A stretch of DNA of 63,997 nt, filler included, from an uncultured bacterium (GTDB taxonomy: Bacteria; CAYJOG01), in the NCBI GenBank assembly GCA_964371695.1. It is 10 parts of 10 records of this genome, joined end to end, with 100 filler letters (N's around TTAATTAATTAA, not from the genome) between each part and the next. Parts side by side here need not be neighbours in the genome. Positions count along the whole stretch, not along the records: positions 39,894 to 46,350 come from CAYJOG010000176.1; 9 more parts are not named here. The stretch is one strand, 5' to 3'. Within the stretch, counting starts at the first letter, position 1. Every line of letters starts with the position of its first letter. The notes beneath the pieces are model-generated. The model was given only the letters and a program-made list of their open reading frames with translations, made no database searches and had not been told where the DNA came from. Of this stretch, positions 6,335 through 62,587 are shown one piece after another. The translations under genes and the position numbers were made by a program.

Positions 6335-6541
6335 CAGGTTGTCGAGAAAGTCCCTCCTGGACTTTCTCAACCCATTTTGGAGTAGGCGCGGTGCCCCCAC
6401 CGCGCACAGACCTCAGAGCGTTTTCGGAAATGGCAGAGCATTCAACTGAGGCTTCATATCCAAACCTTGGCCAACCCGCCGTCATTACCGCGAAAGCGGG
6501 AATCCAGCGGGTTTTTTTTTTAAAATGTAAAAAAACAATTT
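6334..6541. repeat. cluster of nested palindromic repeats at contig end
   Basis: CCCTCCTGGACTTT hairpin, GTAG-type REP (6382-6405), GAGCGTTTTCGGAAAT element, CGTC REP (6480-6507). Confidence 0.75.
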
Positions 6542-19558: not shown

Positions 19559-19869
19559 GAGCCTGTTTTAAAATCAGGGCATAAAGTGGAGGTTTTCGCC
19601 CCGCAAGGGGGCTTCGCCCCCGCCAGCGGGTGGTTTTAGAGCGTTTTCGGAAATGGTGGAGCATTTGGCGGAGCTTTCCTGACCAAAACCTTGGCCAACC
19701 CGCCGTCATTCCAGCGAAAGCGGGAATGACGTCAGCCAGGGCGGGGCTTTCAGGCGATGTCTGACCCATCAATTCCGAAATGCTCTAGAGCATTTTCGGA
19801 GTAGACGTGGACGAAATAAGAGCTTTTTTTCTTGCCCTCTCCCTGAGGGAGAGGGCAGCCGAAGGTTGA
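19559..19869. repeat. nested repeat cluster at contig end
   Basis: GAGCCTGTTT element interrupted by GAGCGTTTTCGGAAAT...TTCCGAAATGCTC (19639-19785) containing a CGTC palindrome, then a CCCTCTCCCTGAGGGAGAGGG hairpin. Confidence 0.75.
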
Positions 19870-39793: not shown

Positions 39794-39903
39794 NNNNNNN
39801 NNNNNNNNNNNNNNNNNNNNNNNNNNNNNNNNNNNNNTTAATTAATTAANNNNNNNNNNNNNNNNNNNNNNNNNNNNNNNNNNNNNNNNNNNNAGGAAGC
39901 GCC

Positions 39904-41172
39904 ATGAGCGGGAACTGGGACCTGAGCGCCTACAAAGACCTGATCGCCAAATACGAAGGGGAACAGCAGAAACTGCTCGACCGCCGGGACAGTCTGGTGG
40001 CCGACCTGCCCCTGCGGTTTCTTCGCCAGCAGGCACACTTCACCACCCCCGCCAGCAACTTTGACATGGTGCAGAAGGCCGTGGAAAAAGGCCATTCCGC
40101 CACCCCCAAGATTCTTGAAAAGCTCGGCATTTCCAATCAGGAACTGGCCGAGAAGCTGGGCGTGTCTGTGGCCGACGTGGAGGCCGTGCTCGCCAGCGAG
40201 GTGCGCTCGCCCCACGTGATGGTGGACGGCGAAGACGCCCAGGCCCTGCGCGACGACGTGGTGGCCCGTGGCCGCGAAAACGCCATCCGCGTTTTTCAGG
40301 AGGCAAGCTGGGGCAAGACGCTGCGGTTTTACCGCCCCAGCGGCCTGCGCCTGAAATACTGCGTGCAGGATCTGTTCATCGTGCTCACCGAGGTGGCCAA
40401 GGGCCTGAAAAACCCCGATGAATACCCCATCGACGGCGTGATCTTTCCGAAAATGGAACAACCCGAAGAAGTCCTGTGGGTGTGCGGCATCCTCTCGGAC
40501 ATCGAAAAGAAACTGGGCCTGAAACCCAACCAGATCAAGCTGGAGTTTCTGGTGGAAAGCGGCCAGGCCGTGGTGAACCTGCCCAAGCTCATCGAAAACA
40601 GCATCCCCCGCCTCGCGGGCGTCATCTGGGGCATTGCGGACTACAGCGCCGACGTGCAGTTGCCCGACATCCTCAACGACCACCCCGTGTGCGACTGGGT
40701 GCGCATGACCATCGTGAACCTCGCGGGCGCGGTGGGTGTGCCCTGCATCGACAACATGACGGTGAACTATCCCGTGGCCCGCAAGGACATGGACGAAGCG
40801 GGCAACAAGGTGTTCATCCTCGACCGCCTCAAGGAATGTTACGACGACGCCATCCACGGCATGAAGCTGGGCATGGACGGCAAATGGGTGGGCCACCCAG
40901 CCCAGTTGTTTGTGGTGAAACTGGCCTATGCCCAGCGCTTCAAACAGGCCGAGGTGGACCAGGAGGTTTACAAGATCGAGGAATACAACAAGGCCGTGGA
41001 GGCCGAGCTGGGGGCCACCATCATCTCTGGCGTGATGAGCGACCGCGCCACCGACCGCCACGCCCGCGCCAAACTGCGCATCGCCGCCGCCCAGGGTTAC
41101 ATCGACCCGCAGCGCGCCAAGAACATCGGCATCATCACCGAAGAAGAACTGGCCCGCGCCGAGGGCAAATAA
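39904..41172 (+). CDS. HpcH/HpaI aldolase / CitE / malyl-CoA lyase family protein
   Basis: VDGEDA, FPK, LVES, WGIADYSAD, LGMDGKWVGHPAQ, DRAT motifs. Confidence 0.85.
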   Translation: MSGNWDLSAYKDLIAKYEGEQQKLLDRRDSLVADLPLRFLRQQAHFTTPASNFDMVQKAVEKGHSATPKILEKLGISNQELAEKLGVSVADVEAVLASEVRSPHVMVDGEDAQALRDDVVARGRENAIRVFQEASWGKTLRFYRPSGLRLKYCVQDLFIVLTEVAKGLKNPDEYPIDGVIFPKMEQPEEVLWVCGILSDIEKKLGLKPNQIKLEFLVESGQAVVNLPKLIENSIPRLAGVIWGIADYSADVQLPDILNDHPVCDWVRMTIVNLAGAVGVPCIDNMTVNYPVARKDMDEAGNKVFILDRLKECYDDAIHGMKLGMDGKWVGHPAQLFVVKLAYAQRFKQAEVDQEVYKIEEYNKAVEAELGATIISGVMSDRATDRHARAKLRIAAAQGYIDPQRAKNIGIITEEELARAEGK

Positions 41173-41432
41173 AACCAATTCTAAACCAAAATGGCTGAAA
41201 AGCGCCGGAAGGGTTGACCGACAGGAAACCAGGATGAAACCAAAAAGGGTTGAGAAGAATTGGTATGAATTCACGGATGAATTCGACACGAACACCGCGG
41301 CGCAACAAGCGCCGGAGGTGTTCGCGGCGCACGCGGGCTTTGCCTGCGCCGCGCCGGGCCGCAGCCGTTCACGACGAACGGCAAGGCAAAACAAACGATT
41401 CCAATTCCTGCAATCTGGAATTGGAATTGGTA
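41173..41432. mobile_element. 260-bp MITE-like repeat (TACCAATT-type TIR)
   Basis: AACCAATT...AATTGGTA flanked by TAA on both sides (the left TAA is the lyase stop codon). Confidence 0.75.
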
Positions 41433-41520
41433 TAAAACAGGAAAAGCCGGGGCGGAGAAATACCGCCCCTTTTTGCATCGGGAGCATGTTTTTTGCAGTC
41501 TGTAGAAGTGGAGCATCGTT

Positions 41521-41655
41521 CCCTCCCCCCGATGGGGGGAGGGTGGCCCGCAGGGCCGGGTGAGGGGCAGAACAAAAAAATAAAACCACTATTTGGTTTT
41601 TTGCTTTTGAACAAACCCCTCACCCCAACCCTCTCCCCATTAAAGGGGAGAGGGG
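41521..41655. repeat. CCCTCACCCC/CCCTCTCCC palindrome doublet
   Basis: Inverted pair; 41613-41655 is identical to 54381-54423. Confidence 0.8.
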
Positions 41656-41769
41656 GCAAGGAAGCTTTTTTACCCCGTTTTTTTACGAATACGCCTGGGG
41701 CCAATAACTCCCACGAAACCAAAGACCATCTACAAACTTTATAAAACGCCCTGTTATCAGGAGGACACC

Positions 41770-43440
41770 ATGAACTACACCGCCGCCCGCGCCGCCGCCG
41801 ATGAAGCCCTGAAGGGCCTCCGCGCCCTTTCCCAGGCCGTGACGCAGCACCTCAAAAAAGTCTCCACCGGCGACGACGGCAAGGTGTCCGTCGGCAAAAT
41901 GGACCAGCACCAGTTTGTGGCTTTTGAACTGGCCTATCTGGCCACCGAGGCCGAGGCCAGCCACTTTGGCCTGGACTATCTCACCAGCCTGCGCGAAAAC
42001 GGCAAGGGCGAAGACCTGGGCCTGGAAGACCGGCTGGTGTTCACGTTTGTGGCCGAAGCCGTCACCTCGGCGCAGAGCCGTGTGCGGGGCCGCGAGGCCG
42101 CGTTTGGCGTGAGCGCCGCAGACCTTGCGGGGTGGCTGGGCGCTGACGCCGTGAGCGCCTTCACCACGTTTTTTCTCGACCCCCAGCAATACAGCGGCAT
42201 TTATGCCCTGGTGCAGGAAAAAGGCCACACCGGCGAATACAACCTGCCCGAAGACCTCATGGCGGTGCGGGCCGAGTTCAAACGCTTCGCCGAAGAAAAC
42301 GTGGCCCCCCTCGCCGAGCACACCCACCGGCACGATCAGGACATCCCCGAAGAAATCATCTCCAGCCTCGCCGAGCTGGGCTGCTTTGGCCTCTCCATTC
42401 CCAGCCAGTACGACGGCATGTTGGACGACCTGGGCAACATCGGCATGTGTCTGGTGACCGAGGAACTCTCCCGTGGCTCGCTGGGGGCGGCAGGCTCGCT
42501 CATCACGCGGCCAGAGATTCTGGCCAAGGCCATTCTCAAGGGTGGCACCGACGAACAGAAACAGCACTGGCTGCCCAAGCTGGCGAGCGGCGAAGTGCTG
42601 CCCACCGTGGCTGTGACCGAGCCGGACTATGGCAGCGACGTGGCGGGCATGAAGGTGACCGCCACCGAAGAAGCCGACGGCTGGCGGCTGAACGGCGTGA
42701 AAACCTGGTGTACCTTCGCCGGGCGCGCCGACCTCATGCTGGTGCTGGCCCGCACCAATCCCGACCCGGCGCTGAAACACCGGGGCCTCAGCATGTTCGT
42801 GGCCCCCAAGCCCCGGTTTGTGGGTCACGCGTTCGAGCACGTCTACCCCGACGGCAAGGGCCGCATCGAGGGCCGCGCCATTCCCACCATCGGTTACCGG
42901 GGCATGCACTCCTTCGAGGTGTCGCTGGAAAACGTGTGGGTGCCCAAGGAAAACCTCATCGGCGGCGAGGCGGGCAAGGGCAACGGGTTTTATCTGCAAA
43001 TGGAAGGTTTCAGCGGCGGGCGGTTGCAGACGGCGGCCCGCGCCATTGGTGTGATGCAGGCGTCTTTTGAAGTGGCCAACCGTTATTCCAACGAGCGCAA
43101 GGTGTTTGGCAAACCCATCGCGGCCTATGGCCTGAACCAATACAAACTGGCCCGCATGGCCATGATTCTGTGCGTGGCGCGGCAGTTCAGCTATGGCGTG
43201 TGCCGGCTGATTGACCAGCACAAGGGCCAGATCGAAGCCAGCATGGTAAAGCTCTATTGCTCACGCATCGCCGAGTGGGTGGCCCGCGAGGCCATGCAGT
43301 TGCACGGCGGCATGGGTTACGCTGAGGAATACGCCGTGAGCCGGTATTACGTGGACTCCCGCGTGTTCAGCATTTTTGAGGGCGCCGAAGAAGTGCTGGC
43401 CCTGCGCGTGATCGCCAGGGGCCTGGTGGACAAGGCGTAG
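41770..43440 (+). CDS. acyl-CoA dehydrogenase, (2S)-methylsuccinyl-CoA dehydrogenase-like
   Basis: 556 aa with N-terminal extension; EELSRG, GSLITRPEI, TEPDYGSDV, GYRGM, LHGGMGYAEEY, IFEGAEE. Confidence 0.85.
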   Translation: MNYTAARAAADEALKGLRALSQAVTQHLKKVSTGDDGKVSVGKMDQHQFVAFELAYLATEAEASHFGLDYLTSLRENGKGEDLGLEDRLVFTFVAEAVTSAQSRVRGREAAFGVSAADLAGWLGADAVSAFTTFFLDPQQYSGIYALVQEKGHTGEYNLPEDLMAVRAEFKRFAEENVAPLAEHTHRHDQDIPEEIISSLAELGCFGLSIPSQYDGMLDDLGNIGMCLVTEELSRGSLGAAGSLITRPEILAKAILKGGTDEQKQHWLPKLASGEVLPTVAVTEPDYGSDVAGMKVTATEEADGWRLNGVKTWCTFAGRADLMLVLARTNPDPALKHRGLSMFVAPKPRFVGHAFEHVYPDGKGRIEGRAIPTIGYRGMHSFEVSLENVWVPKENLIGGEAGKGNGFYLQMEGFSGGRLQTAARAIGVMQASFEVANRYSNERKVFGKPIAAYGLNQYKLARMAMILCVARQFSYGVCRLIDQHKGQIEASMVKLYCSRIAEWVAREAMQLHGGMGYAEEYAVSRYYVDSRVFSIFEGAEEVLALRVIARGLVDKA

Positions 43441-43510
43441 AGCGGCTTGCGGAGCAGCGCCCACCACATCAGTCGTTACAAATGGGTTCTGGCGAGCCTG
43501 GGCGGCGCTC

Positions 43511-43694
43511 GCTGCCCTCTCCCTGAGGGAGAGGGCAGCCAAAGGTTGAGCAAAGCGAAACCTGAGGCGGGTGAGGGGGAACAACCTGCTCAAATAGCAG
43601 GTATTGGGTTGTTCAGCGGTTCCTGTCCCCCTCACCCGCGCACGACCTCACATCCGTTCGGCCCTGCGCTGCCCTCTCCCTCAGGGAGAGGGCA
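43511..43694. repeat. CCCTCTCCCTGAGGGAGAGGG palindrome doublet
   Basis: Two inverted units; the left unit matches 19833-19869. Confidence 0.8.
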
Positions 43695-43765
43695 AGGTAA
43701 AACATCGTCACAAGGATTTTTTTTCCGCCGTGGTATCTTTCGAACATTCAGGACGGTTTTTTGAC

Positions 43766-44977
43766 ATGAGCCGCAATCCGTCCATCAGGCAGGAACGCCA
43801 GTGGGCGCTGGGCCTGCTGTTGCTCGCTTTCATCACGTTTTTCATCGGCAGCTTTTTTGGCCGGGGGCCGCAAAAATCCGCCGCCCCACCCGTGCCCTGG
43901 ACATGGCGCGCCTTTGGCCGCGCCCGCCTGAAACCCACCGGTGCGCCGGGGCAGTGGGTGTGGCCCGGCGTGGGCCGCGTGTCGCTCTCGGCCCCGTGGC
44001 AGGCCCACGTAGAAAAAACCGTGGCGCGGTTTGCGCCGCCGCAGGCCGCCGTGCTGATACAGGAACTGCCCAGCGGCCGGATGCTGGCGGCGGCGGGTTT
44101 CGGCCCCGGCGGCGCGCCGGGAGCGCAGGCGTTTCAGCACCCGGTGCTGGGGCGCAGGCTGGTGGCCGCCAGCATCATGAAGGTGCCCACGGCGGCGGCC
44201 CTGCTGGAGAACAACATCGCCACCATCCACACCGCCAGCCGCTGCAACGGGCGTTACACCGTGAGCGGCGGCTCGGTGGAAAACCACGGCTGGGGCGATT
44301 ATGGCCAGCTCACACTGGCCCGCGCCCTGGCCAAAAGCTGCAACACCGTGTTTGCCCGTTATGCCCAGCAGGTGGGCTGGCCACCCATCTTGGCGGCCCT
44401 CACGCGGCTGGGGTGGCGCGAACCGGCCTGGGGCGTGCCCGCCACCGAAAAACCCGTGGTGCCCGCGAGCCTCAAGGGGCTGGAACTGTCACAGGCTTCG
44501 GCGGGTTTTGGCCACGTGCTGGTTACGCCCTGGCACATGCTTTCGCTCACCAGTGTGCTGGGCGGCGGCGGCGCGCCCAAACCGCCGGTATGGATCAAAA
44601 CCACCCAGCCTCTGGCGGAGCGCACCGGCTGCGGCGCACCCTGCCAGCCCCATCCGCCCCAGGCTCTGAACAAAGCGGTGGCGGCCAACCTGCTGCTGGC
44701 GCTGCGCGACGGCGTACACGACCCCATCGGCACGGCCCACAAGGGTTTTTTCACGCCGGGGGGGCGATACCGGCTGCCGGATATTTATGAGGTCCACGCC
44801 AAGACCGGCTCGCTCAACAGCCCCGACCCGAAGGGGTACCTCACCTGGTTTGTGGGCGTGGTGACCAAAAACGGCCAGCCGCACCTGGGCGTGGTGAGCA
44901 TGGTGCTGAACGAGCCGGTCTGGCGCATCCGCGCCGCGGGTCTGGCGGGTGAACTGCTGTCCAGCGCGCCGTGGTAG
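43766..44977 (+). CDS. penicillin-binding transpeptidase domain protein
   Basis: N-terminal TM; SxxK (ASIMK), SxN (SCN) and KTG motifs. Confidence 0.88.
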   Translation: MSRNPSIRQERQWALGLLLLAFITFFIGSFFGRGPQKSAAPPVPWTWRAFGRARLKPTGAPGQWVWPGVGRVSLSAPWQAHVEKTVARFAPPQAAVLIQELPSGRMLAAAGFGPGGAPGAQAFQHPVLGRRLVAASIMKVPTAAALLENNIATIHTASRCNGRYTVSGGSVENHGWGDYGQLTLARALAKSCNTVFARYAQQVGWPPILAALTRLGWREPAWGVPATEKPVVPASLKGLELSQASAGFGHVLVTPWHMLSLTSVLGGGGAPKPPVWIKTTQPLAERTGCGAPCQPHPPQALNKAVAANLLLALRDGVHDPIGTAHKGFFTPGGRYRLPDIYEVHAKTGSLNSPDPKGYLTWFVGVVTKNGQPHLGVVSMVLNEPVWRIRAAGLAGELLSSAPW

Positions 44978-45043
44978 GATGATTTTTCAAAGTCGTAAAT
45001 GGGCCTCGTGTTTTTTCGCCCCAAAAACTTATAGGAGCGCAAG

Positions 45044-45322
45044 ATGCCCGAAAATGATGAAGAAATTGAACTGATTGCAAAGGTGTACGCCGAAAAGGTT
45101 ACGAAATTCAGCGATGAGTTTTTGGCCGACATTGAAGAAAGACTCAAATCCAAGGTTGATGAAGGAAAAGCCAACGCTTTGATAGAAGAAATAAAAATGG
45201 ATGTTGGGTTTGTCTCTCTTTTAAGAACTTTTGCATATGAAAAAATAATAACGAGGGACGTGTTGTCACACCTTAGTGACCGCATAGATAAATTAGAGGA
45301 GAACCAATCCCAGAAGGAGTGA
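45044..45322 (+). CDS. hypothetical protein (AT-rich)
   Basis: 92-aa ORF with AGGAG RBS, markedly lower GC than flanks. Confidence 0.65.
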   Translation: MPENDEEIELIAKVYAEKVTKFSDEFLADIEERLKSKVDEGKANALIEEIKMDVGFVSLLRTFAYEKIITRDVLSHLSDRIDKLEENQSQKE

Positions 45323-45336
45323 AAACGCCTCACCGC

Positions 45337-45555
45337 CGTCATTCCCGCGAAGGCGGGAATCCAGTCCGAGCAAAAAAGCCTTCACCTTCTTTTCTATTCC
45401 CTTGGTGGCGCAGGCATCCTGCCTTCGCTGTCATCAATGAGGGCGGGCTGGACCACGGGCGTAGACGCCTTGGGCTACTTGCCCCAAAAATGAACAAAGA
45501 AAATGGTTTGGTGTTTATCGGTTTGAACTGGATTCCCGCCTTCGCGGGAATGACG
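45337..45555. repeat. CGTC-type REP doublet (REPIN)
   Basis: CGTCATTCCCGCGAAGGCGGGAATCCAG (45337-45364) and a perfect inverse (45528-45555). Confidence 0.9.
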
Positions 45556-45691
45556 GTGGGGGGCGCTGAGGCCATGTCTCTTTCCAACATCTGTCTTCCT
45601 GCGTTCAGCTTCCTGCTCTCCCCTTTTCTCGGGAATGACGCCGGGGTATCCCAAAACCCGTTGAACGGTTGCCGTATCCTTTGATGAACAC

Positions 45692-46057
45692 ATGGCCAGA
45701 CAACCCGCCATTTACCTGATCACCAGTCAGCGAAACGGTACGTTGTATCTGGGGGTGACCAGCAATCTGCTCAAAAGGGTCACGGAGCATCAAAACGAGG
45801 TTGCGGATGGCTTCAGCAAAAAATATGGAATTCACAAGCTAGTCTATTTTGAATTTCAACCGGACATGCCCAGCGCCATTTGCCGGGAGAAACAGATCAA
45901 AAAATGGCGGCGGCAGTGGAAGATCGGGTTGATCGAAAAATACAATCCCGACTGGGACGACTTGTTGCCGTTGCTGGCGGGAACAACGGATGACCCAAAA
46001 GGATTATTGAAAAGGTTTTTTGCTTCAAGTTTAACTGTATTCCCGCTTTCGCGGTAA
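45692..46057 (+). CDS. small GIY-YIG nuclease family protein
   Basis: AIY...NGTLYLGVTSNL..RV.EH...GFSKKY..KLVYFE...A..REKQIKKWRR.WK..LIE..NP.W.DL. Confidence 0.93.
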   Translation: MARQPAIYLITSQRNGTLYLGVTSNLLKRVTEHQNEVADGFSKKYGIHKLVYFEFQPDMPSAICREKQIKKWRRQWKIGLIEKYNPDWDDLLPLLAGTTDDPKGLLKRFFASSLTVFPLSR

Positions 46058-46100
46058 TGACGGCGGGGGGAGGGAACCTGCTTCTTTCGCGGGAATCCAG
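46035..46100. repeat. CGTC-type REP copies at the 3' end of the GIY-YIG gene
   Basis: CTGTATTCCCGCTTTCGCGGTAATGACG (46035-46062, contains the stop codon) and partial TTCGCGGGAATCCAG (46086-46100). Confidence 0.85.
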
Positions 46101-46186
46101 TCAAACATAAGCAAAACCAACTTCTTTTTTTCAGCGCCAACCTCCGCCCCCCGCCGCGCTCACACCCTGCTAAACTGGAAAGGTTC

Positions 46187-46350
46187 ATGTTGCGCCTGAG
46201 ACGATGTGTGCGCCCTGCGTTGCTGGCGGCCCTGATGGGTGTGCTGGCGGCTCCCGTGCGGGCCAGCCGGGTGTATCCCATCCAGTTTGTCCACGGCCCC
46301 CAGGCGGTGGTGTATCTGAATCAGGAGGGCGAACTGGCCCCCGGCGACAC
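46187..46350 (+). CDS. secreted hypothetical protein (3'-truncated)
   Basis: Signal-peptide-like N-terminus; runs into the contig end. Confidence 0.45.
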
Positions 46351-46450
46351 NNNNNNNNNNNNNNNNNNNNNNNNNNNNNNNNNNNNNNNNNNNNTTAATT
46401 AATTAANNNNNNNNNNNNNNNNNNNNNNNNNNNNNNNNNNNNNNNNNNNN

Positions 46451-47386
46451 GTGGTGCTCACCGGTTGCAACAGCGCCGCGCCGCCCCCTGCCCCCACGGC
46501 CACGCCGGGAGGCGGGCCGGTTTCGGGCAGCGCCACCGTGCCGTCCATGCCGGGAGCACCCGGAGTGGTCTCCGGCAGCGCACAGGCCAGCGGCTCACAA
46601 CCCGTCGCACCGCCTCCTTCTGATGACCTGGATCTGGCCGAGCGCGAAAAACGCCGTTTGAAACAGCGCGAAGAATCCCTCAAAAAAGAAGAAGAAGAAG
46701 AACGCCACACGCTGTTTGTGACCGAAAACGCCTTTCATGACCTCAAAACAGGCCGTTATGACCCTTTTGTGGAAGTGGATCCCTACCGGGAGCTGAACCC
46801 CGAGGTGGGCATGGCCATCAATTCACAGTTTTACCGGGTCACGGGTTTTGCCAAGCAGGGCGACAAAATCTATGGCGTGGTGGAACTGGGCATGAATTTC
46901 ACCCTGGTTCCGCCACGGGCAATATCCGCCGTGGCGGTGACGGGCGACGCCTTTTACAAAGACTATATGGTGCAGGAAAACCAGCTACTTTGGCGGGGTC
47001 AGCCGGTGCAGGATGGCGAAATCCTGCCCACCGGCGAAATCGTGGACGAAGCCGAGGTGTACAAGAATCTGGTGGTGGTGTCACAGATTGACATGGACAA
47101 AGGCACCATCACGCTCAAAACTGTTCCCAGAGACAAAATTCCCTCGCAGCAGGTGACGCTGGAGCTGGGCTCCCGCAAACGTGCTGCGGCGGCCTCCACC
47201 AAACCGGGCGAAGAAGTTGACCTGGACATTGACCCCAACGCCAACAACGACGAATACATCCGTTATCTCTATGAAAAGACCAACAACCCTGGCGGCAAAA
47301 AGAAACGCAACTTCAACGACTATCTCAAAAACCTGAAAAAGAAGAACCAGCAGGAAAAAGGGCAGGGAGAGCCGGATGGAGGCTGA
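46451..47386 (+). CDS. lipoprotein, PilP-like (5'-truncated)
   Basis: Lipobox LTGC, disordered linker, RYDPF motif, beta-rich domain; directly upstream of the secretin. Confidence 0.6.
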   Translation: MVLTGCNSAAPPPAPTATPGGGPVSGSATVPSMPGAPGVVSGSAQASGSQPVAPPPSDDLDLAEREKRRLKQREESLKKEEEEERHTLFVTENAFHDLKTGRYDPFVEVDPYRELNPEVGMAINSQFYRVTGFAKQGDKIYGVVELGMNFTLVPPRAISAVAVTGDAFYKDYMVQENQLLWRGQPVQDGEILPTGEIVDEAEVYKNLVVVSQIDMDKGTITLKTVPRDKIPSQQVTLELGSRKRAAAASTKPGEEVDLDIDPNANNDEYIRYLYEKTNNPGGKKKRNFNDYLKNLKKKNQQEKGQGEPDGG

Positions 47387-47447
47387 GCGGTGCGCACAAA
47401 CATTTCACGGCCATCCGCATTGCGGCGGCCAGCAAGGGGGGCTTAGA

Positions 47448-50400
47448 ATGGCCCGGCGTTTTGCCCCCGTGGATGTGCTCATGACCCGTCGCCTGATGTT
47501 TGTGTTGTTGTGCCTTGGCCTGTGGCCGGGCTTGCTGGCGGGCCGCGTCCAGGCCAAGGTCACCGATGTCCACGTGGAAAAGTCCCGCAACAACGTGGTG
47601 CTGTTCATTCGCGGCAACGAAACCCTTCAATACAAACTGAGCGAGTTTGAAAACCCCAACCGCCTGCTGGTGACGGTGTTTGAGCAGGACATGGCCTCGG
47701 ACCGCGAGAGCATCCGGGTGGGTCAGGGGCAGGTGGACAAGGTTTTTGTCAAACAGGAAGGCCAGCACGTGCGGGTGAGCGTGAACCTGCTGGCGCGCAC
47801 CCAATACAACGTTTACACCAAAGACGGCAATCGCACCATCGTGCTGAGCCTGCGCACCGACGATTTTGAAATTGACGCCGCGCCGGGACAGCAGGAATCC
47901 GCCGGTGCAGCCCCCACGGGCGACGGTGCCCCGTCCAGCGGAGGCGTGCCCGTCAAGGGGGGGCAGCAGGGCAGCGGCGCGTCCTCTGGCAGCAGCGGCA
48001 GCAACTTTCCCCCGCCGGGGTTTGCTTATCGCGATTACAAGGGCGAAGCGCCCCCGCCCCTGCCCGGATACGGTTTTGACAATGTGGGGGCCAGCGCTGG
48101 GGAGGGGGGCGCCGCAGGTCAGTTCGACGTCTTCGGCAAAAGGATAGATTCCAGCCCCCTGCTGGAGCACATCGTGTTTCAGGACGCCGAAATCAGCGAA
48201 GTGGCCCTGCAACTCAGCCGGTTGACCAACACCAACATTCTGGTGGATTCCCTTCTTGTGGGGGCCACGGCGGGCAGCACCGCTTCGCCAGAGAGCGGCG
48301 TGGAGGCGGGCACCGGCGGCGTTTCGCTGGATCTCAAGAACGTCACGCTGGAGCAGGCCTTGGATTTCATCACCAAAGCCAGTGGCTGGGCCTGGGTAAA
48401 GATAGCCAACACCTACATGATTCTCGCCTCCGAGACCAAGTTTGCCGGGTTTTCGGATGAGTCCACCTGGGGTAAAACCAACGCCGACACCACGCTGCCC
48501 GTCGACGTGCGTTACATCCCTCTGCGCTACGCCAGCGTCGCCATGCTGGCCCCCTATGTCAATGCCGTGTTCGGCTTGGGGGCAGGGGGAGAAGAAGCCG
48601 CCGACTGGCCCAATGTCGCCTATGACGCCGCCCGCAACATCATCATCCTGCGGGGCGCGTTGCATGAGCTGGACAAAGCCGAAGCGGTCATCAAAAAACT
48701 GGACACACCTGGTTTTGACAACAACATCATTTTCAAGATCATTCCCATTCCGAAAGATCTGGTGAAGATTGACCAGGCCAGTTTCAACGAACTGATCAAC
48801 GCCCTCATGGCCAGTCCCTATCTGGGTTATGACGGCAAACACACCACCGACACCTACGTGGATACCAATGCCGTCAGTTATCAACTGCAGTTTCTCTCCA
48901 ACGCCAGCCAGTTGATATTTCTGGGAAACCCAGAGGCCTATCAAAAGGTCAAGGCGGTGATTGACCAGTTTTTTGCCAACCATGAAACCTGGCGCATGCA
49001 TCCGTTCAAATTGATCAACATTCCCGTCTCGGCCCTGAACTTCAAAGACTTTGCCTCGGTCCTCAAATATGACCTTACCAAGGGGGGCCAAAACAACTAT
49101 GAAATGGATATACGGCGCAACGGCACACTGTTTTTAGACACCGGCAACAATGTGGTGTTCTTTTTCGGCACCAAAGAGGATGCAGATCGCCTCAAGATCG
49201 TTCTGGAACGCGTGGACACGGCGGAAGCCAAAGTTGTTTCCGTCAAGGTCAAGCTCAAAAACCTTCAAACCAATCTCATCGCCCCCACAACGATGGAGGG
49301 ATCCACCGTGGTAAACCCGACTGAACAGTTGGAGGATTGCCAACATCCACTGGACTGTCAGTTGCAGAATCCCTATTACGGTTACCCGGCCTATGGTGGG
49401 AACGTCATGCAGCCACCCCCGGACGATGATGATCGCAAGATGTTTTATCGCAATCCTGTCGGCATACAGTTTCATCATGCCATCAACACCATTTCGATCA
49501 TCGGCCCCCAGTTGTTTGCCCACCGGATTCGTGATTTTTTTCTGGAAGCCGATGCCGAAAACAAAGTCGAGCAGGTGGAGGACACCGTCCGGCTCAAATA
49601 CATGCTGCCCTCGGACGTGGGCCAGTACATCACACTGATGATGAGCAAGGGTGTGGGTTGTGGCGCTCCCCTGGGGGGCAATCAGTCTCGCGTGGAGACC
49701 AAGACGCCCACCGTGCCCACGCCGCCCCTGGCCGGCGCCGCCACCACGCCGCTTAATTTGAACTCAGGTTTTGTGCAGGTGGTTGCTGGAGAGTTGGCCC
49801 GGGACGCTTATGACGGTGCCTGTCTGTTGTGGGTAGCCGATGAACAGAAGGGCACGTTTTATCTCAAAGGCCCCCCCAACGCCGTGCGTCTGGCAAAAAA
49901 TGTGGTGCGGGCCTATGACACGCCCGTGCCCATGGTGAAGCTGGACGTGAAAGTGCTGGAGGTGCGGTCCAGCGACGTGGACGAACTGGGGGGCAAGGGC
50001 ACCCAGCGCCTGGGCGACATTCTGCTGGGCGCGGACGGGGCCACGGGCCTTGTCACGTCCATTCTCGATGAAGTCACCGATCTTGCCTCAGGGGCCATCC
50101 GCAACGGAGACGGCTCACTGGAACTCAAGTTCCGCAACAGCAAGGCCAAGGCCCGTGTGCTGGCCAACCCCAGCATTCTCACCAGCCACATGAAAGTCAC
50201 CAATTTTGATTTCACCGACGCGGTGGGTTATCAGCAGGCCACCGGCACCAGCAACGATGTGGCGGTGGAAGAACTGGGCATCACCCTTGCGGTCACGCCT
50301 TACATCCACGACCAGAACGAAGTCACCCTGGAGGTCAACCCGGACATCCGCACGCTGGGGGGCTTTTTTGAAGGCCAGTCCTGCGCCCTGGTGCAGGGAA

Positions 50401-50705
50401 GCGGCGGCGCCAGCGGCACCAGCCAGTGCCTGCCCACCCGCAGGCCCCTCATCAGCACACGCAACCTCACCACCAAGGTGCGGGTGACCAACAATGTGCC
50501 CCTCATCATCGGCGGTCTCATCTCAAGCCGCGACACCGAAAACGTCAGCAAAATTCCGATTTTGGGCGATCTGCCCCTGTTCGGTTCCTTCTTCCGCAAC
50601 GCCAGCAAATCCAAGGAAGACCTGGAAGTGGTCATCGTCATCACCCCCACCATCCTGATGGGTGAAAACCTCTCCAGCACCCCCACCGACGAAACCGCCC
50701 AGTAG
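47448..50705 (+). CDS. pilQ: type IV pilus/type II secretion secretin with AMIN domain (PilQ-like)
   Basis: AMIN (ENPNRLLV), N0 (FQDAEI, LKNVTLEQAL), N3-type repeats, secretin core (VLANPSI, GITLAVTP, KIPILGDLPLFG.FF, VIVITPTI). Confidence 0.88.
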   Translation: MARRFAPVDVLMTRRLMFVLLCLGLWPGLLAGRVQAKVTDVHVEKSRNNVVLFIRGNETLQYKLSEFENPNRLLVTVFEQDMASDRESIRVGQGQVDKVFVKQEGQHVRVSVNLLARTQYNVYTKDGNRTIVLSLRTDDFEIDAAPGQQESAGAAPTGDGAPSSGGVPVKGGQQGSGASSGSSGSNFPPPGFAYRDYKGEAPPPLPGYGFDNVGASAGEGGAAGQFDVFGKRIDSSPLLEHIVFQDAEISEVALQLSRLTNTNILVDSLLVGATAGSTASPESGVEAGTGGVSLDLKNVTLEQALDFITKASGWAWVKIANTYMILASETKFAGFSDESTWGKTNADTTLPVDVRYIPLRYASVAMLAPYVNAVFGLGAGGEEAADWPNVAYDAARNIIILRGALHELDKAEAVIKKLDTPGFDNNIIFKIIPIPKDLVKIDQASFNELINALMASPYLGYDGKHTTDTYVDTNAVSYQLQFLSNASQLIFLGNPEAYQKVKAVIDQFFANHETWRMHPFKLINIPVSALNFKDFASVLKYDLTKGGQNNYEMDIRRNGTLFLDTGNNVVFFFGTKEDADRLKIVLERVDTAEAKVVSVKVKLKNLQTNLIAPTTMEGSTVVNPTEQLEDCQHPLDCQLQNPYYGYPAYGGNVMQPPPDDDDRKMFYRNPVGIQFHHAINTISIIGPQLFAHRIRDFFLEADAENKVEQVEDTVRLKYMLPSDVGQYITLMMSKGVGCGAPLGGNQSRVETKTPTVPTPPLAGAATTPLNLNSGFVQVVAGELARDAYDGACLLWVADEQKGTFYLKGPPNAVRLAKNVVRAYDTPVPMVKLDVKVLEVRSSDVDELGGKGTQRLGDILLGADGATGLVTSILDEVTDLASGAIRNGDGSLELKFRNSKAKARVLANPSILTSHMKVTNFDFTDAVGYQQATGTSNDVAVEELGITLAVTPYIHDQNEVTLEVNPDIRTLGGFFEGQSCALVQGSGGASGTSQCLPTRRPLISTRNLTTKVRVTNNVPLIIGGLISSRDTENVSKIPILGDLPLFGSFFRNASKSKEDLEVVIVITPTILMGENLSSTPTDETAQ

Positions 50706-54110: not shown

Positions 54111-54457
54111 GGCCCTAGAGTCAATATCCCGCCAAGGGCCGAGACTTTGACCGAAGTGCCACAGACTTGGTGGGGTTTTTAAAAACGGCGAGACATTTTT
54201 CCGCCGTCATTCCCGCGAAAGCGGGAATCCAGTGAGGACAAAAAGAAAAACCAGTTTTGGTGGCGCGAGTAGCCACGGGTGTCCCCACCTGTGGTCTTGC
54301 CCGCCTGAGCAGGGCGCGCGAAACAGCCGGGGCAAAATATGGACAAAACCTCAAAAAATATGGTTTTTTCGCTTTTTGTTAAACCCCTCACCCCAACCCT
54401 CTCCCCATTAAAGGGGAGAGGGGAGAGGTTACTACCAGGGCGTTTTTCAACACACGG

Positions 54458-59079: not shown

Positions 59080-59398
59080 CGTCATTCCCGCGAAGGCGGG
59101 AATCCAGTTGAAGTAAAAACACCGCGCCTTTTTCCGTTTTCTTTCTCTATAGTTTTTTTAGTGGGGCGGGCGACCCCGCCCGCCTGAACAAAAGGTCAAA
59201 AGATCTTTTTCTTTGATTGGCGGGCGGGACGCCCGCCCCACTGCTGTTAGGTTTATTGGTAGCCCCGGCGTCTCGCCGGGAGCAAAAAAACGCCGAAGGC
59301 GTCGCCAAGCAGGATTTTTTCAGGGAGATGTAGAGGAGGGATATGAATGGTGCGCGCCTGCGGCACGTCTGAAACCCCCGGCGGGACGCCGGGGCTAC
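59080..59398. repeat. REP cluster at contig end
   Basis: CGTC REP 59080-59107; GTGGGGCGGGCG doublet 59161-59241; GTAGCCCCGGCG doublet 59259-59398. Confidence 0.85.
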
Positions 59399-62487: not shown

Positions 62488-62587
62488 CGTCATTCCAGCG
62501 AAAGCGTGAATCCAGATTTTTTTAAAAAAGGGTCAAAAGCCCTTTGCTTTTTGTTTTGACTGGATTCCCGCTTTCGCGGGAATGACG
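62488..62587. repeat. CGTC-type REP doublet
   Basis: CGTCATTCCAGCGAAAGCGTGAATCCAG and inverse CTGGATTCCCGCTTTCGCGGGAATGACG. Confidence 0.85.

Follow-up and report, generated by a model that had tools for sequence, protein, structure and literature searches.

Our analysis indicates that a small gene from an uncultured bacterium (GTDB lineage Bacteria; CAYJOG01; assembly GCA_964371695.1) very probably encodes an Ssn-family, site-specific ssDNA endonuclease lying among its cognate NTS/SRM hairpins, which are CGTC-1 REPs. The locus is a typical member of the Ssn/NTS system, for which the gene–repeat association, the biochemistry and a comparison with IS200/IS605 transposases were published in 2025 (Chenal et al., Nat Commun 2025; PMC11893778). 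The original prediction for this DNA had seen in the gene a candidate mobiliser for an orphan REP class. Because association, biochemistry and comparison are already given in that work, the CGTC class is no longer an orphan, and the predicted recognition and nicking of the REP hairpin by the nuclease is on record in vitro for four homologues of the family (PMC11893778).

The window, that is, the whole analysed stretch of 63,997 nucleotides including filler, consists of separate contigs joined via N linkers (for example 46351–46450), across which gene order is meaningless. The contig with the ssn gene is C176 (window 39894–46350); the gene is close to its end, and a penicillin-binding-type gene and then a 92-aa open reading frame (ORF) stand upstream of it. 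This ORF (45044–45322), directly 5′ of the repeat cluster, has a GC content of 39% and looks foreign; Pfam and NCBIfam scans gave no match for it. Type IV pilus-like genes, including one for a 1109-aa secretin, occupy window positions 46451–50705 on the contig placed after that of ssn, and we rejected them as demonstrated ssn neighbours because they are on another contig. The gene and the repeats in the window are as follows.

6480–6507, plus strand: dispersed NTS copy on another contig, 1 mismatch.
19704–19731, plus strand: collapsed dimer (two heads fused into a head-to-head palindrome) in a MITE-like repeat on another contig.
45337–45364, plus strand: NTS/CGTC-1 REP, left arm of an inverted dimer, exact consensus match.
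45365–45527, no strand: dimer spacer, whose A/T-rich arms recur in further dimers of the same genome; at roughly 45405 it holds an unrelated palindrome.
45528–45555, minus strand: NTS/CGTC-1 REP, right arm of the 45337–45555 dimer, exact consensus match.
45614–45641, minus strand: degenerate repeat copy 5′ of the ssn start codon, 6 mismatches, weak hairpin.
45692–46057, plus strand: ssn (Ssn/SsnA family, single-domain GIY-YIG), 121-aa ORF, by Pfam match and homology to an SsnA orthologue.
46035–46062, minus strand: NTS copy holding the ssn TAA stop codon, 2 mismatches to the consensus.
46086–46100, plus strand: right half only of a repeat (remnant), partial match.
54205–54232, plus strand: dispersed NTS copy on another contig, exact.
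59080–59107, plus strand: dispersed NTS copy on another contig, exact.
62488–62587, no strand: short inverted NTS dimer on another contig (62488 plus, 2 mismatches; 62560 minus, exact).

Repeat sequence is present at all 11 palindrome sites of the original prediction, eight of them near-full copies (at most 3 mismatches to a 26-base pattern, compared to a mean of 0.00 in 100 shuffles), one collapsed, one degenerate and one half, and the five said to lie within roughly 770 bp on both sides of the GIY-YIG gene correspond to three full and two partial copies. Five copies are identical to the published 28-nt NTS consensus (45337+, 45528−, 54205+, 59080+ and 62560−). It also holds that a repeat supplies the stop codon here, with the TAA inside the 46035–46062 copy and the ORF made up of a core of roughly 96 aa plus roughly 25 aa of read-through into the 3′ repeat, but this is not a family feature: the stop lies inside a repeat in 3 of 82 loci, other homologues likewise show occasional read-through, and we therefore rejected it as a design feature in favour of incidental read-through. 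That copy falls outside both the 1-mismatch and the SRM cut-offs of Chenal et al., and one of its mismatches alters the base after the stem, which Neisseria SsnA requires for binding; both exact upstream copies match SRM.

Genome-wide, we found 132 exact NTS copies, 165 with at most 1 mismatch and 198 with at most 2, compared to none in 1 Mb of Markov-simulated sequence. The repeat folds into the form by which CGTC-1 REPs are recognized, with a CGTC tag, an 8-bp stem opening with A–T pairs, a 4-nt loop and a CCA tail, and it is multicopy and mostly arranged in inverted dimers, as the definition of that class requires (35 of 41 close repeat pairs in the source genome are inverted with their CGTC heads outward). 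The dimer at 45337–45555 is REPIN-like, and the entire unit folds at −68 kcal/mol (DNA parameters). In the survey of Di Nocera et al. (BMC Genomics 2013; PMC3733652), CGTC-1 REPs comprise dRS3 of Neisseria and RPE-6 of Rickettsia and are reported to lack a dedicated transposase; that survey covered transposase genes, and the word ‘GIY’ is absent from its text as available to us. The orphan CGTC REP class and NTS are the same thing, an equation that rests on dRS3 because both PMC11893778 and PMC3733652 name it, while the main text of PMC11893778 names neither Di Nocera nor RAYT nor REPIN.

Other repeats accompany these in the source genome. A MITE-like repeat of roughly 150 bp with 15-bp terminal inverted repeats (window 19637–19800 and some 20 other places in the genome) contains an NTS dimer whose place inside it is fixed and whose inner length differs between copies (8, 34, 129, 249, 256 and 433 bp). 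A second palindrome family, of the CCCTCTCCC type (window 18966, 19835, 41521, 41629, 43515, 43672 and 54397), is more abundant, with roughly 310 genome sites under a loose pattern; such repeats can occur beside small DUF559/Vsr-like nuclease genes. The third family is GTGG-headed (window 10818, 39576 and 45405; 93 strand matches in the genome) and is often nested in NTS dimers.

Chenal et al. defined the 28-nt Neisseria repeat NTS and the looser motif SRM, the latter found near 71% of ssnA homologues and flanking them on both sides in 42% (PMC11893778). SsnA (NMV_0044/NMB0047; CDD class cd10448, GIY-YIG_unchar_3) and three homologues bind and cut ssDNA only, just 5′ of the hairpin, in vitro, and SsnA reduces the integration of repeat-bearing transforming DNA, with 5-fold more transformation in the knockout (PMC11893778). 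The Discussion of the same paper describes the repeat–gene–repeat layout as IS-like and likens it to domesticated REP-associated IS200/IS605 transposases.

The window protein matches the Pfam GIY-YIG domain (PF01541) with an E value of 1.2 × 10−13, no further Pfam domain appearing in the scan, and its gene is the sole tblastn match in the genome (3.43 Mb, 83% complete). It shares 46 of 88 aligned residues (52%) with the Neisseria gonorrhoeae orthologue, over 88 of 94 residues and with an E value of 1 × 10−37, well within the bounds that we set for Ssn homology (E below 1 × 10−10 over more than 75% of the SsnA length); we used this orthologue in place of meningococcal SsnA, and it carries the ssnA primer of PMC11893778 exactly, with 16 NTS matches around it. 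Residues Y8, Y19 and E66 align without gaps to the mutated Y6, Y17 and E64 of SsnA and do not vary across the 17 proteins that were aligned. At 121 aa, the single-domain protein is below the 150 aa that bound the Ssn family, whose other members here mostly have 94–98 aa, and NTS/SRM copies stand on both sides of the gene, as they do in that family. The core of the gene has a GC content of 50%, compared to 61% for the genome.

The locus thus shares with the published system a repeat identical to the NTS consensus, a small GIY-YIG protein, the catalytic residues, and both flanking and genome-wide repeats. It differs in that its host has no close kin among the genomes compared, in that read-through into the repeat brings the ORF to 121 aa, and in that the source genome has mostly spaced inverted dimers whereas Neisseria has long arrays. 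Activity has been shown for the Neisseria and Wolbachia homologues; with its core intact, we expect with high confidence that the window protein is active too.

In layout, ssn loci resemble RAYT/REPIN systems: a single gene stands between copies of its own type of repeat and mostly keeps to fixed loci, inverted dimers are polymorphic between kin, and the repeat variant matches the resident gene. The window locus is nevertheless outside the RAYT family: RAYT combines an HUH Y1 enzyme with a GTAG tag and ssn a GIY-YIG enzyme with a CGTC tag, the repeats flanking ssn are CGTC- and not GTAG-tagged, and the Pfam scan of the ssn protein, which returned only PF01541, did not find the HUH Y1 transposase domain PF01797. 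GIY-YIG enzymes hydrolyse DNA, whereas HUH enzymes cut and rejoin it through a phosphotyrosine. The catalytic domain PF01541 is shared with homing endonucleases of the I-TevI type and with Slx1-like nucleases. Unlike GIY-YIG homing endonucleases, ssn shows no DNA-binding extension and no intron was seen; its score against TIGR01453 is 22.2 bits compared to a cut-off of 56.05, over model positions 3–70 of 215, and a sequence comparison with solved structures gave no match.

We evaluated the association more broadly on the best 80 loci of at least 544 relatives, leaving out 12 whose flank was shorter than 500 bp on one side, and counted as a repeat any SRM match or an NTS with at most 3 mismatches. 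The enrichment anticipated in the original prediction, of repeats within 500 bp of this GIY-YIG subfamily, is borne out: 63 of the 68 scored loci, from multiple phyla, have such a repeat and 50 have it on both sides, at a density of roughly 5 per kb within 250 bp compared to 0–0.08 per kb at 2–5 kb. Of the 60 homologue loci that are occupied on both sides, 40 have as their nearest flanking pair two inverted copies whose CGTC heads point outward, and such a pair together with the gene often forms a minimal unit of 350–365 bp, in many phyla. For the window gene, the outermost full pair is heads-outward and the nearest pair is not. Distant homologues are flanked less often, many loci at 43–60% identity having no repeat. 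In a sample of 60 genomes drawn from different families, six of the ten that are repeat-rich (at least 10 repeats) yielded the gene, compared to 4 of the 50 others (P = 7 × 10−4); the four repeat-rich genomes in which it was not found with the single query used are mostly incomplete metagenome-assembled genomes (MAGs).

One genome (G038) has seven matches at 47–55% identity (L007, L013 and L017–L021), three of them with equal score, and neither NTS nor SRM was found near these loci or elsewhere in that genome; this set may represent a subfamily that is multiplying and has another type of repeat. Phage records gave no match to the gene. The 33 plasmid-collection records that carry it are mostly megaplasmids or chromosomes, and 32 are typed as non-mobilizable. 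Four plasmid-filed records (H16/L102, H22, H2 and H4) are of chromosome size (2.2–4.9 Mb) and probably misfiled.

As the source genome has no close kin, we compared instead 69 genomes of the genus of another homologue locus (L088), all of them MAGs, for which chimerism and missing contigs are possible. The gene was found in 28, and the relation between copy number and gene presence expected from the original prediction is seen in the medians (41 repeat copies with the gene compared to 12 without; P = 3 × 10−4, the kin being non-independent) and at the low end, where at most 10 copies occur in 1 of 28 genomes with the gene compared to 19 of 41 without. It is not strict, however, as 8 of the 41 genomes in which the single query found no gene, mostly incomplete MAGs, have at least 50 copies. 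The presence of Y1 (IS200/RAYT-type) transposases also goes with repeat density in this genus, weakly (P = 0.015).

Two stem variants of the repeat occur in the genus, and they do not mix: among 30 fetched ssn loci, 17 have one variant only, 12 the other only, and a single locus, a distant match, has neither. The 17 genes with the first variant form a supported clade (99/97), and among genomes with a single gene, the variant that predominates genome-wide agrees with that gene in 13 of 15 and 5 of 6 cases, six genomes with several matches having been set aside. The anticipated co-variation of REP sequence with nuclease phylogeny is seen in that 29 of 30 loci are single-variant and match the clades, but 16 of the 17 genes lie at a single orthologous locus, so the match reflects mostly one inherited pairing and not many independent ones.

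A second site in the genus lies between two divergent genes, which we take from their N-termini to be trpC and proA, and is readable in 29 of the best-scoring 30 loci. There, 16 congeners have the spacer only (81 bp; range 80–86 bp), six a repeat–ssn–repeat cassette, two repeats alone and five other REP families. The cassette is an insertion that replaces part of the spacer without duplication, and it is scattered over the tree of the flanking genes, in roughly four places among empty relatives. In several pairs, the ssn genes at this site are more alike than their flanks (85% compared to 76–80%, 96% to 89–94% and 91.5% to 83.5–84.7%), one copy is frameshifted, and in a discordant pair the flank identity next to the junction is not raised. 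We examined five dimers against five relatives, and each of the dimers lacks a counterpart at the orthologous position of one or more close relatives. Dimer and cassette junctions are ragged at 85–95% flank identity, with host bases replaced, and unrelated REP families likewise occupy these intergenic sites. Where a cassette or dimer replaces part of a promoter spacer (L103–L105, L107, L109, L115 and L118), the repeat end lies 5–16 bases from the start codon of the neighbour and may supply its ribosome-binding site.

These comparative data, namely flanking repeats, copy number, variant match and presence–absence sites, are compatible with a RAYT-like role. We put the chances as about even that Ssn is the dedicated mobiliser of the CGTC REP superfamily, an independently evolved second REP/REPIN system in which host repair would finish the move without target duplication; the idea of an IS-like mobiliser was itself raised in PMC11893778. 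Going by the homologues, a repeat that becomes single-stranded would form its hairpin of 8-bp stem and 4-nt loop, the protein would bind it in one orientation by reading the stem and the base 3′ of it, and would then cut the strand shortly before the CGTC head, a few bases to its 5′ side (4 nt for the meningococcal substrate). As most repeats are inverted dimers with heads outward, both outer ends would be cut, each on a different strand. We know of no strand-joining step in GIY-YIG enzymes, so any move of a repeat would need host repair: by repair or recombination, the dimer, or in rare cases the cassette that bears the gene, might be copied or pasted into intergenic DNA. The outcome would be a RAYT/REPIN-like pairing, in which a single resident gene keeps a fixed locus and repeats of matching sequence are spread over the genome.

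Several searches for direct traces of such movement were negative. Target-site duplications at the triplet level were found in 0 of 40 units (shuffle mean 0.07) and none was seen by eye at the genus sites. Among the MITE-nested copies of the source genome, there is no clean empty dimer site; one of these copies has a deletion that slippage at a 5-nt microhomology explains best, and another is the collapsed dimer. Contigs of four out of six public runs, from one study that is possibly the source of the genome and in a format that drops rare variants, hold only other short dimers at the candidate excision joints and none that removes the gene. In the source genome, conservation extends 4 nt beyond the CGTC head on its 5′ side, equal to the 4-nt offset from the oligonucleotides of PMC11893778, but we rejected the equation of element end with cut site, as neither a set of 173 copies (80 loci across phyla) nor one of 57 copies (one other genome) showed this 4-nt head again. 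In the open literature, we found no paper that tests Ssn or repeat mobility; subscription papers were outside the scope. In the text of PMC11893778, we saw no bias in repeat orientation, no matching of variants within a genus and no comparison of empty sites, although its figures and supplements, and the figures of PMC3733652, may hold orientation or pairing data.

The strongest competitor, and a real possibility even if we do not expect it to prevail, is that Ssn is a host-domesticated enzyme for ssDNA restriction or recombination control, that its gene sits among repeats for autoregulation or by history, and that the repeats spread otherwise, by gene conversion, slippage or other transposases. 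This is the only role shown in vivo (PMC11893778), and it would suit the few fixed loci at which the gene is mostly found in the genus, the lack of phage records, the non-mobilizable typing of 32 of 33 plasmid-collection records and the repeat-rich genomes where no gene was found. ComEC and DprA homologues are present in the source genome, so a Neisseria-type role is possible there too, though these genes are near-universal among the controls (10 of 14). Taken alone, however, domestication leaves unexplained the heads-outward bracket across phyla, the insertion of cassettes into an empty spacer and the variant match, and it is compatible with a mobiliser origin. It is unlikely, in our view, that the repeat–ssn–repeat cassette is instead a selfish homing-like element, copied into sites with resident repeats by inter-lineage recombination and leaving solo dimers as its deleted offspring. 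The scatter of the cassette on the flank tree, the ssn genes that are more alike than their flanks, the frameshifted copy and the minimal unit of roughly 350–365 bp in many phyla would all agree with such an element, whereas the unraised flank identity by the junction and the single copy in most genomes would not, and MAG chimerism or repeated loss could produce the same scatter.

That Y1/RAYT transposases move the CGTC repeats, with ssn as passenger or target, we regard as improbable. In the genus, repeat density shows a weak correlation with the presence of these transposases, and the source genome has three Y1 genes, all of them away from ssn, but none of the three has a repeat closer than 1.5 kb, the survey text of PMC3733652 reports no tyrosine transposase gene flanked by CGTC repeats, and the association with ssn is stronger and variant-specific. 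Chance clustering in a repeat-rich genome can be practically dismissed. The genome does hold roughly 200 copies, and the ssn site is one of two with at least 3 repeats within 770 bp, the other being without such a gene; yet when 200,000 gene-sized intervals were drawn at random, only 0.06% were flanked by repeats on both sides and 0.02% had at least 3 copies as well, homologues are alike across phyla, and binding and cleavage are published (PMC11893778).

Returning to the mobiliser reading, whether Ssn spreads CGTC REPs is the question left by Di Nocera et al. in 2013 and raised again in 2025. The window itself adds one more probable site-specific ssDNA nuclease, with the Neisseria consensus as its target and from a distant uncultured bacterium, to a family that already numbers thousands of members and is the subject of a tool-making literature. 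The genus set, with two stem variants tied to two ssn clades and with empty and filled sites, makes the mobiliser idea testable, and the window is not required for this. If the idea is true, it would explain a repeat superfamily across many phyla through a transposition-like process without a transposase, and the repeat–ssn–repeat cassette of roughly 355 bp, with its 96-residue nickase, would be among the smallest autonomous elements, sometimes moving between species into the same intergenic site.
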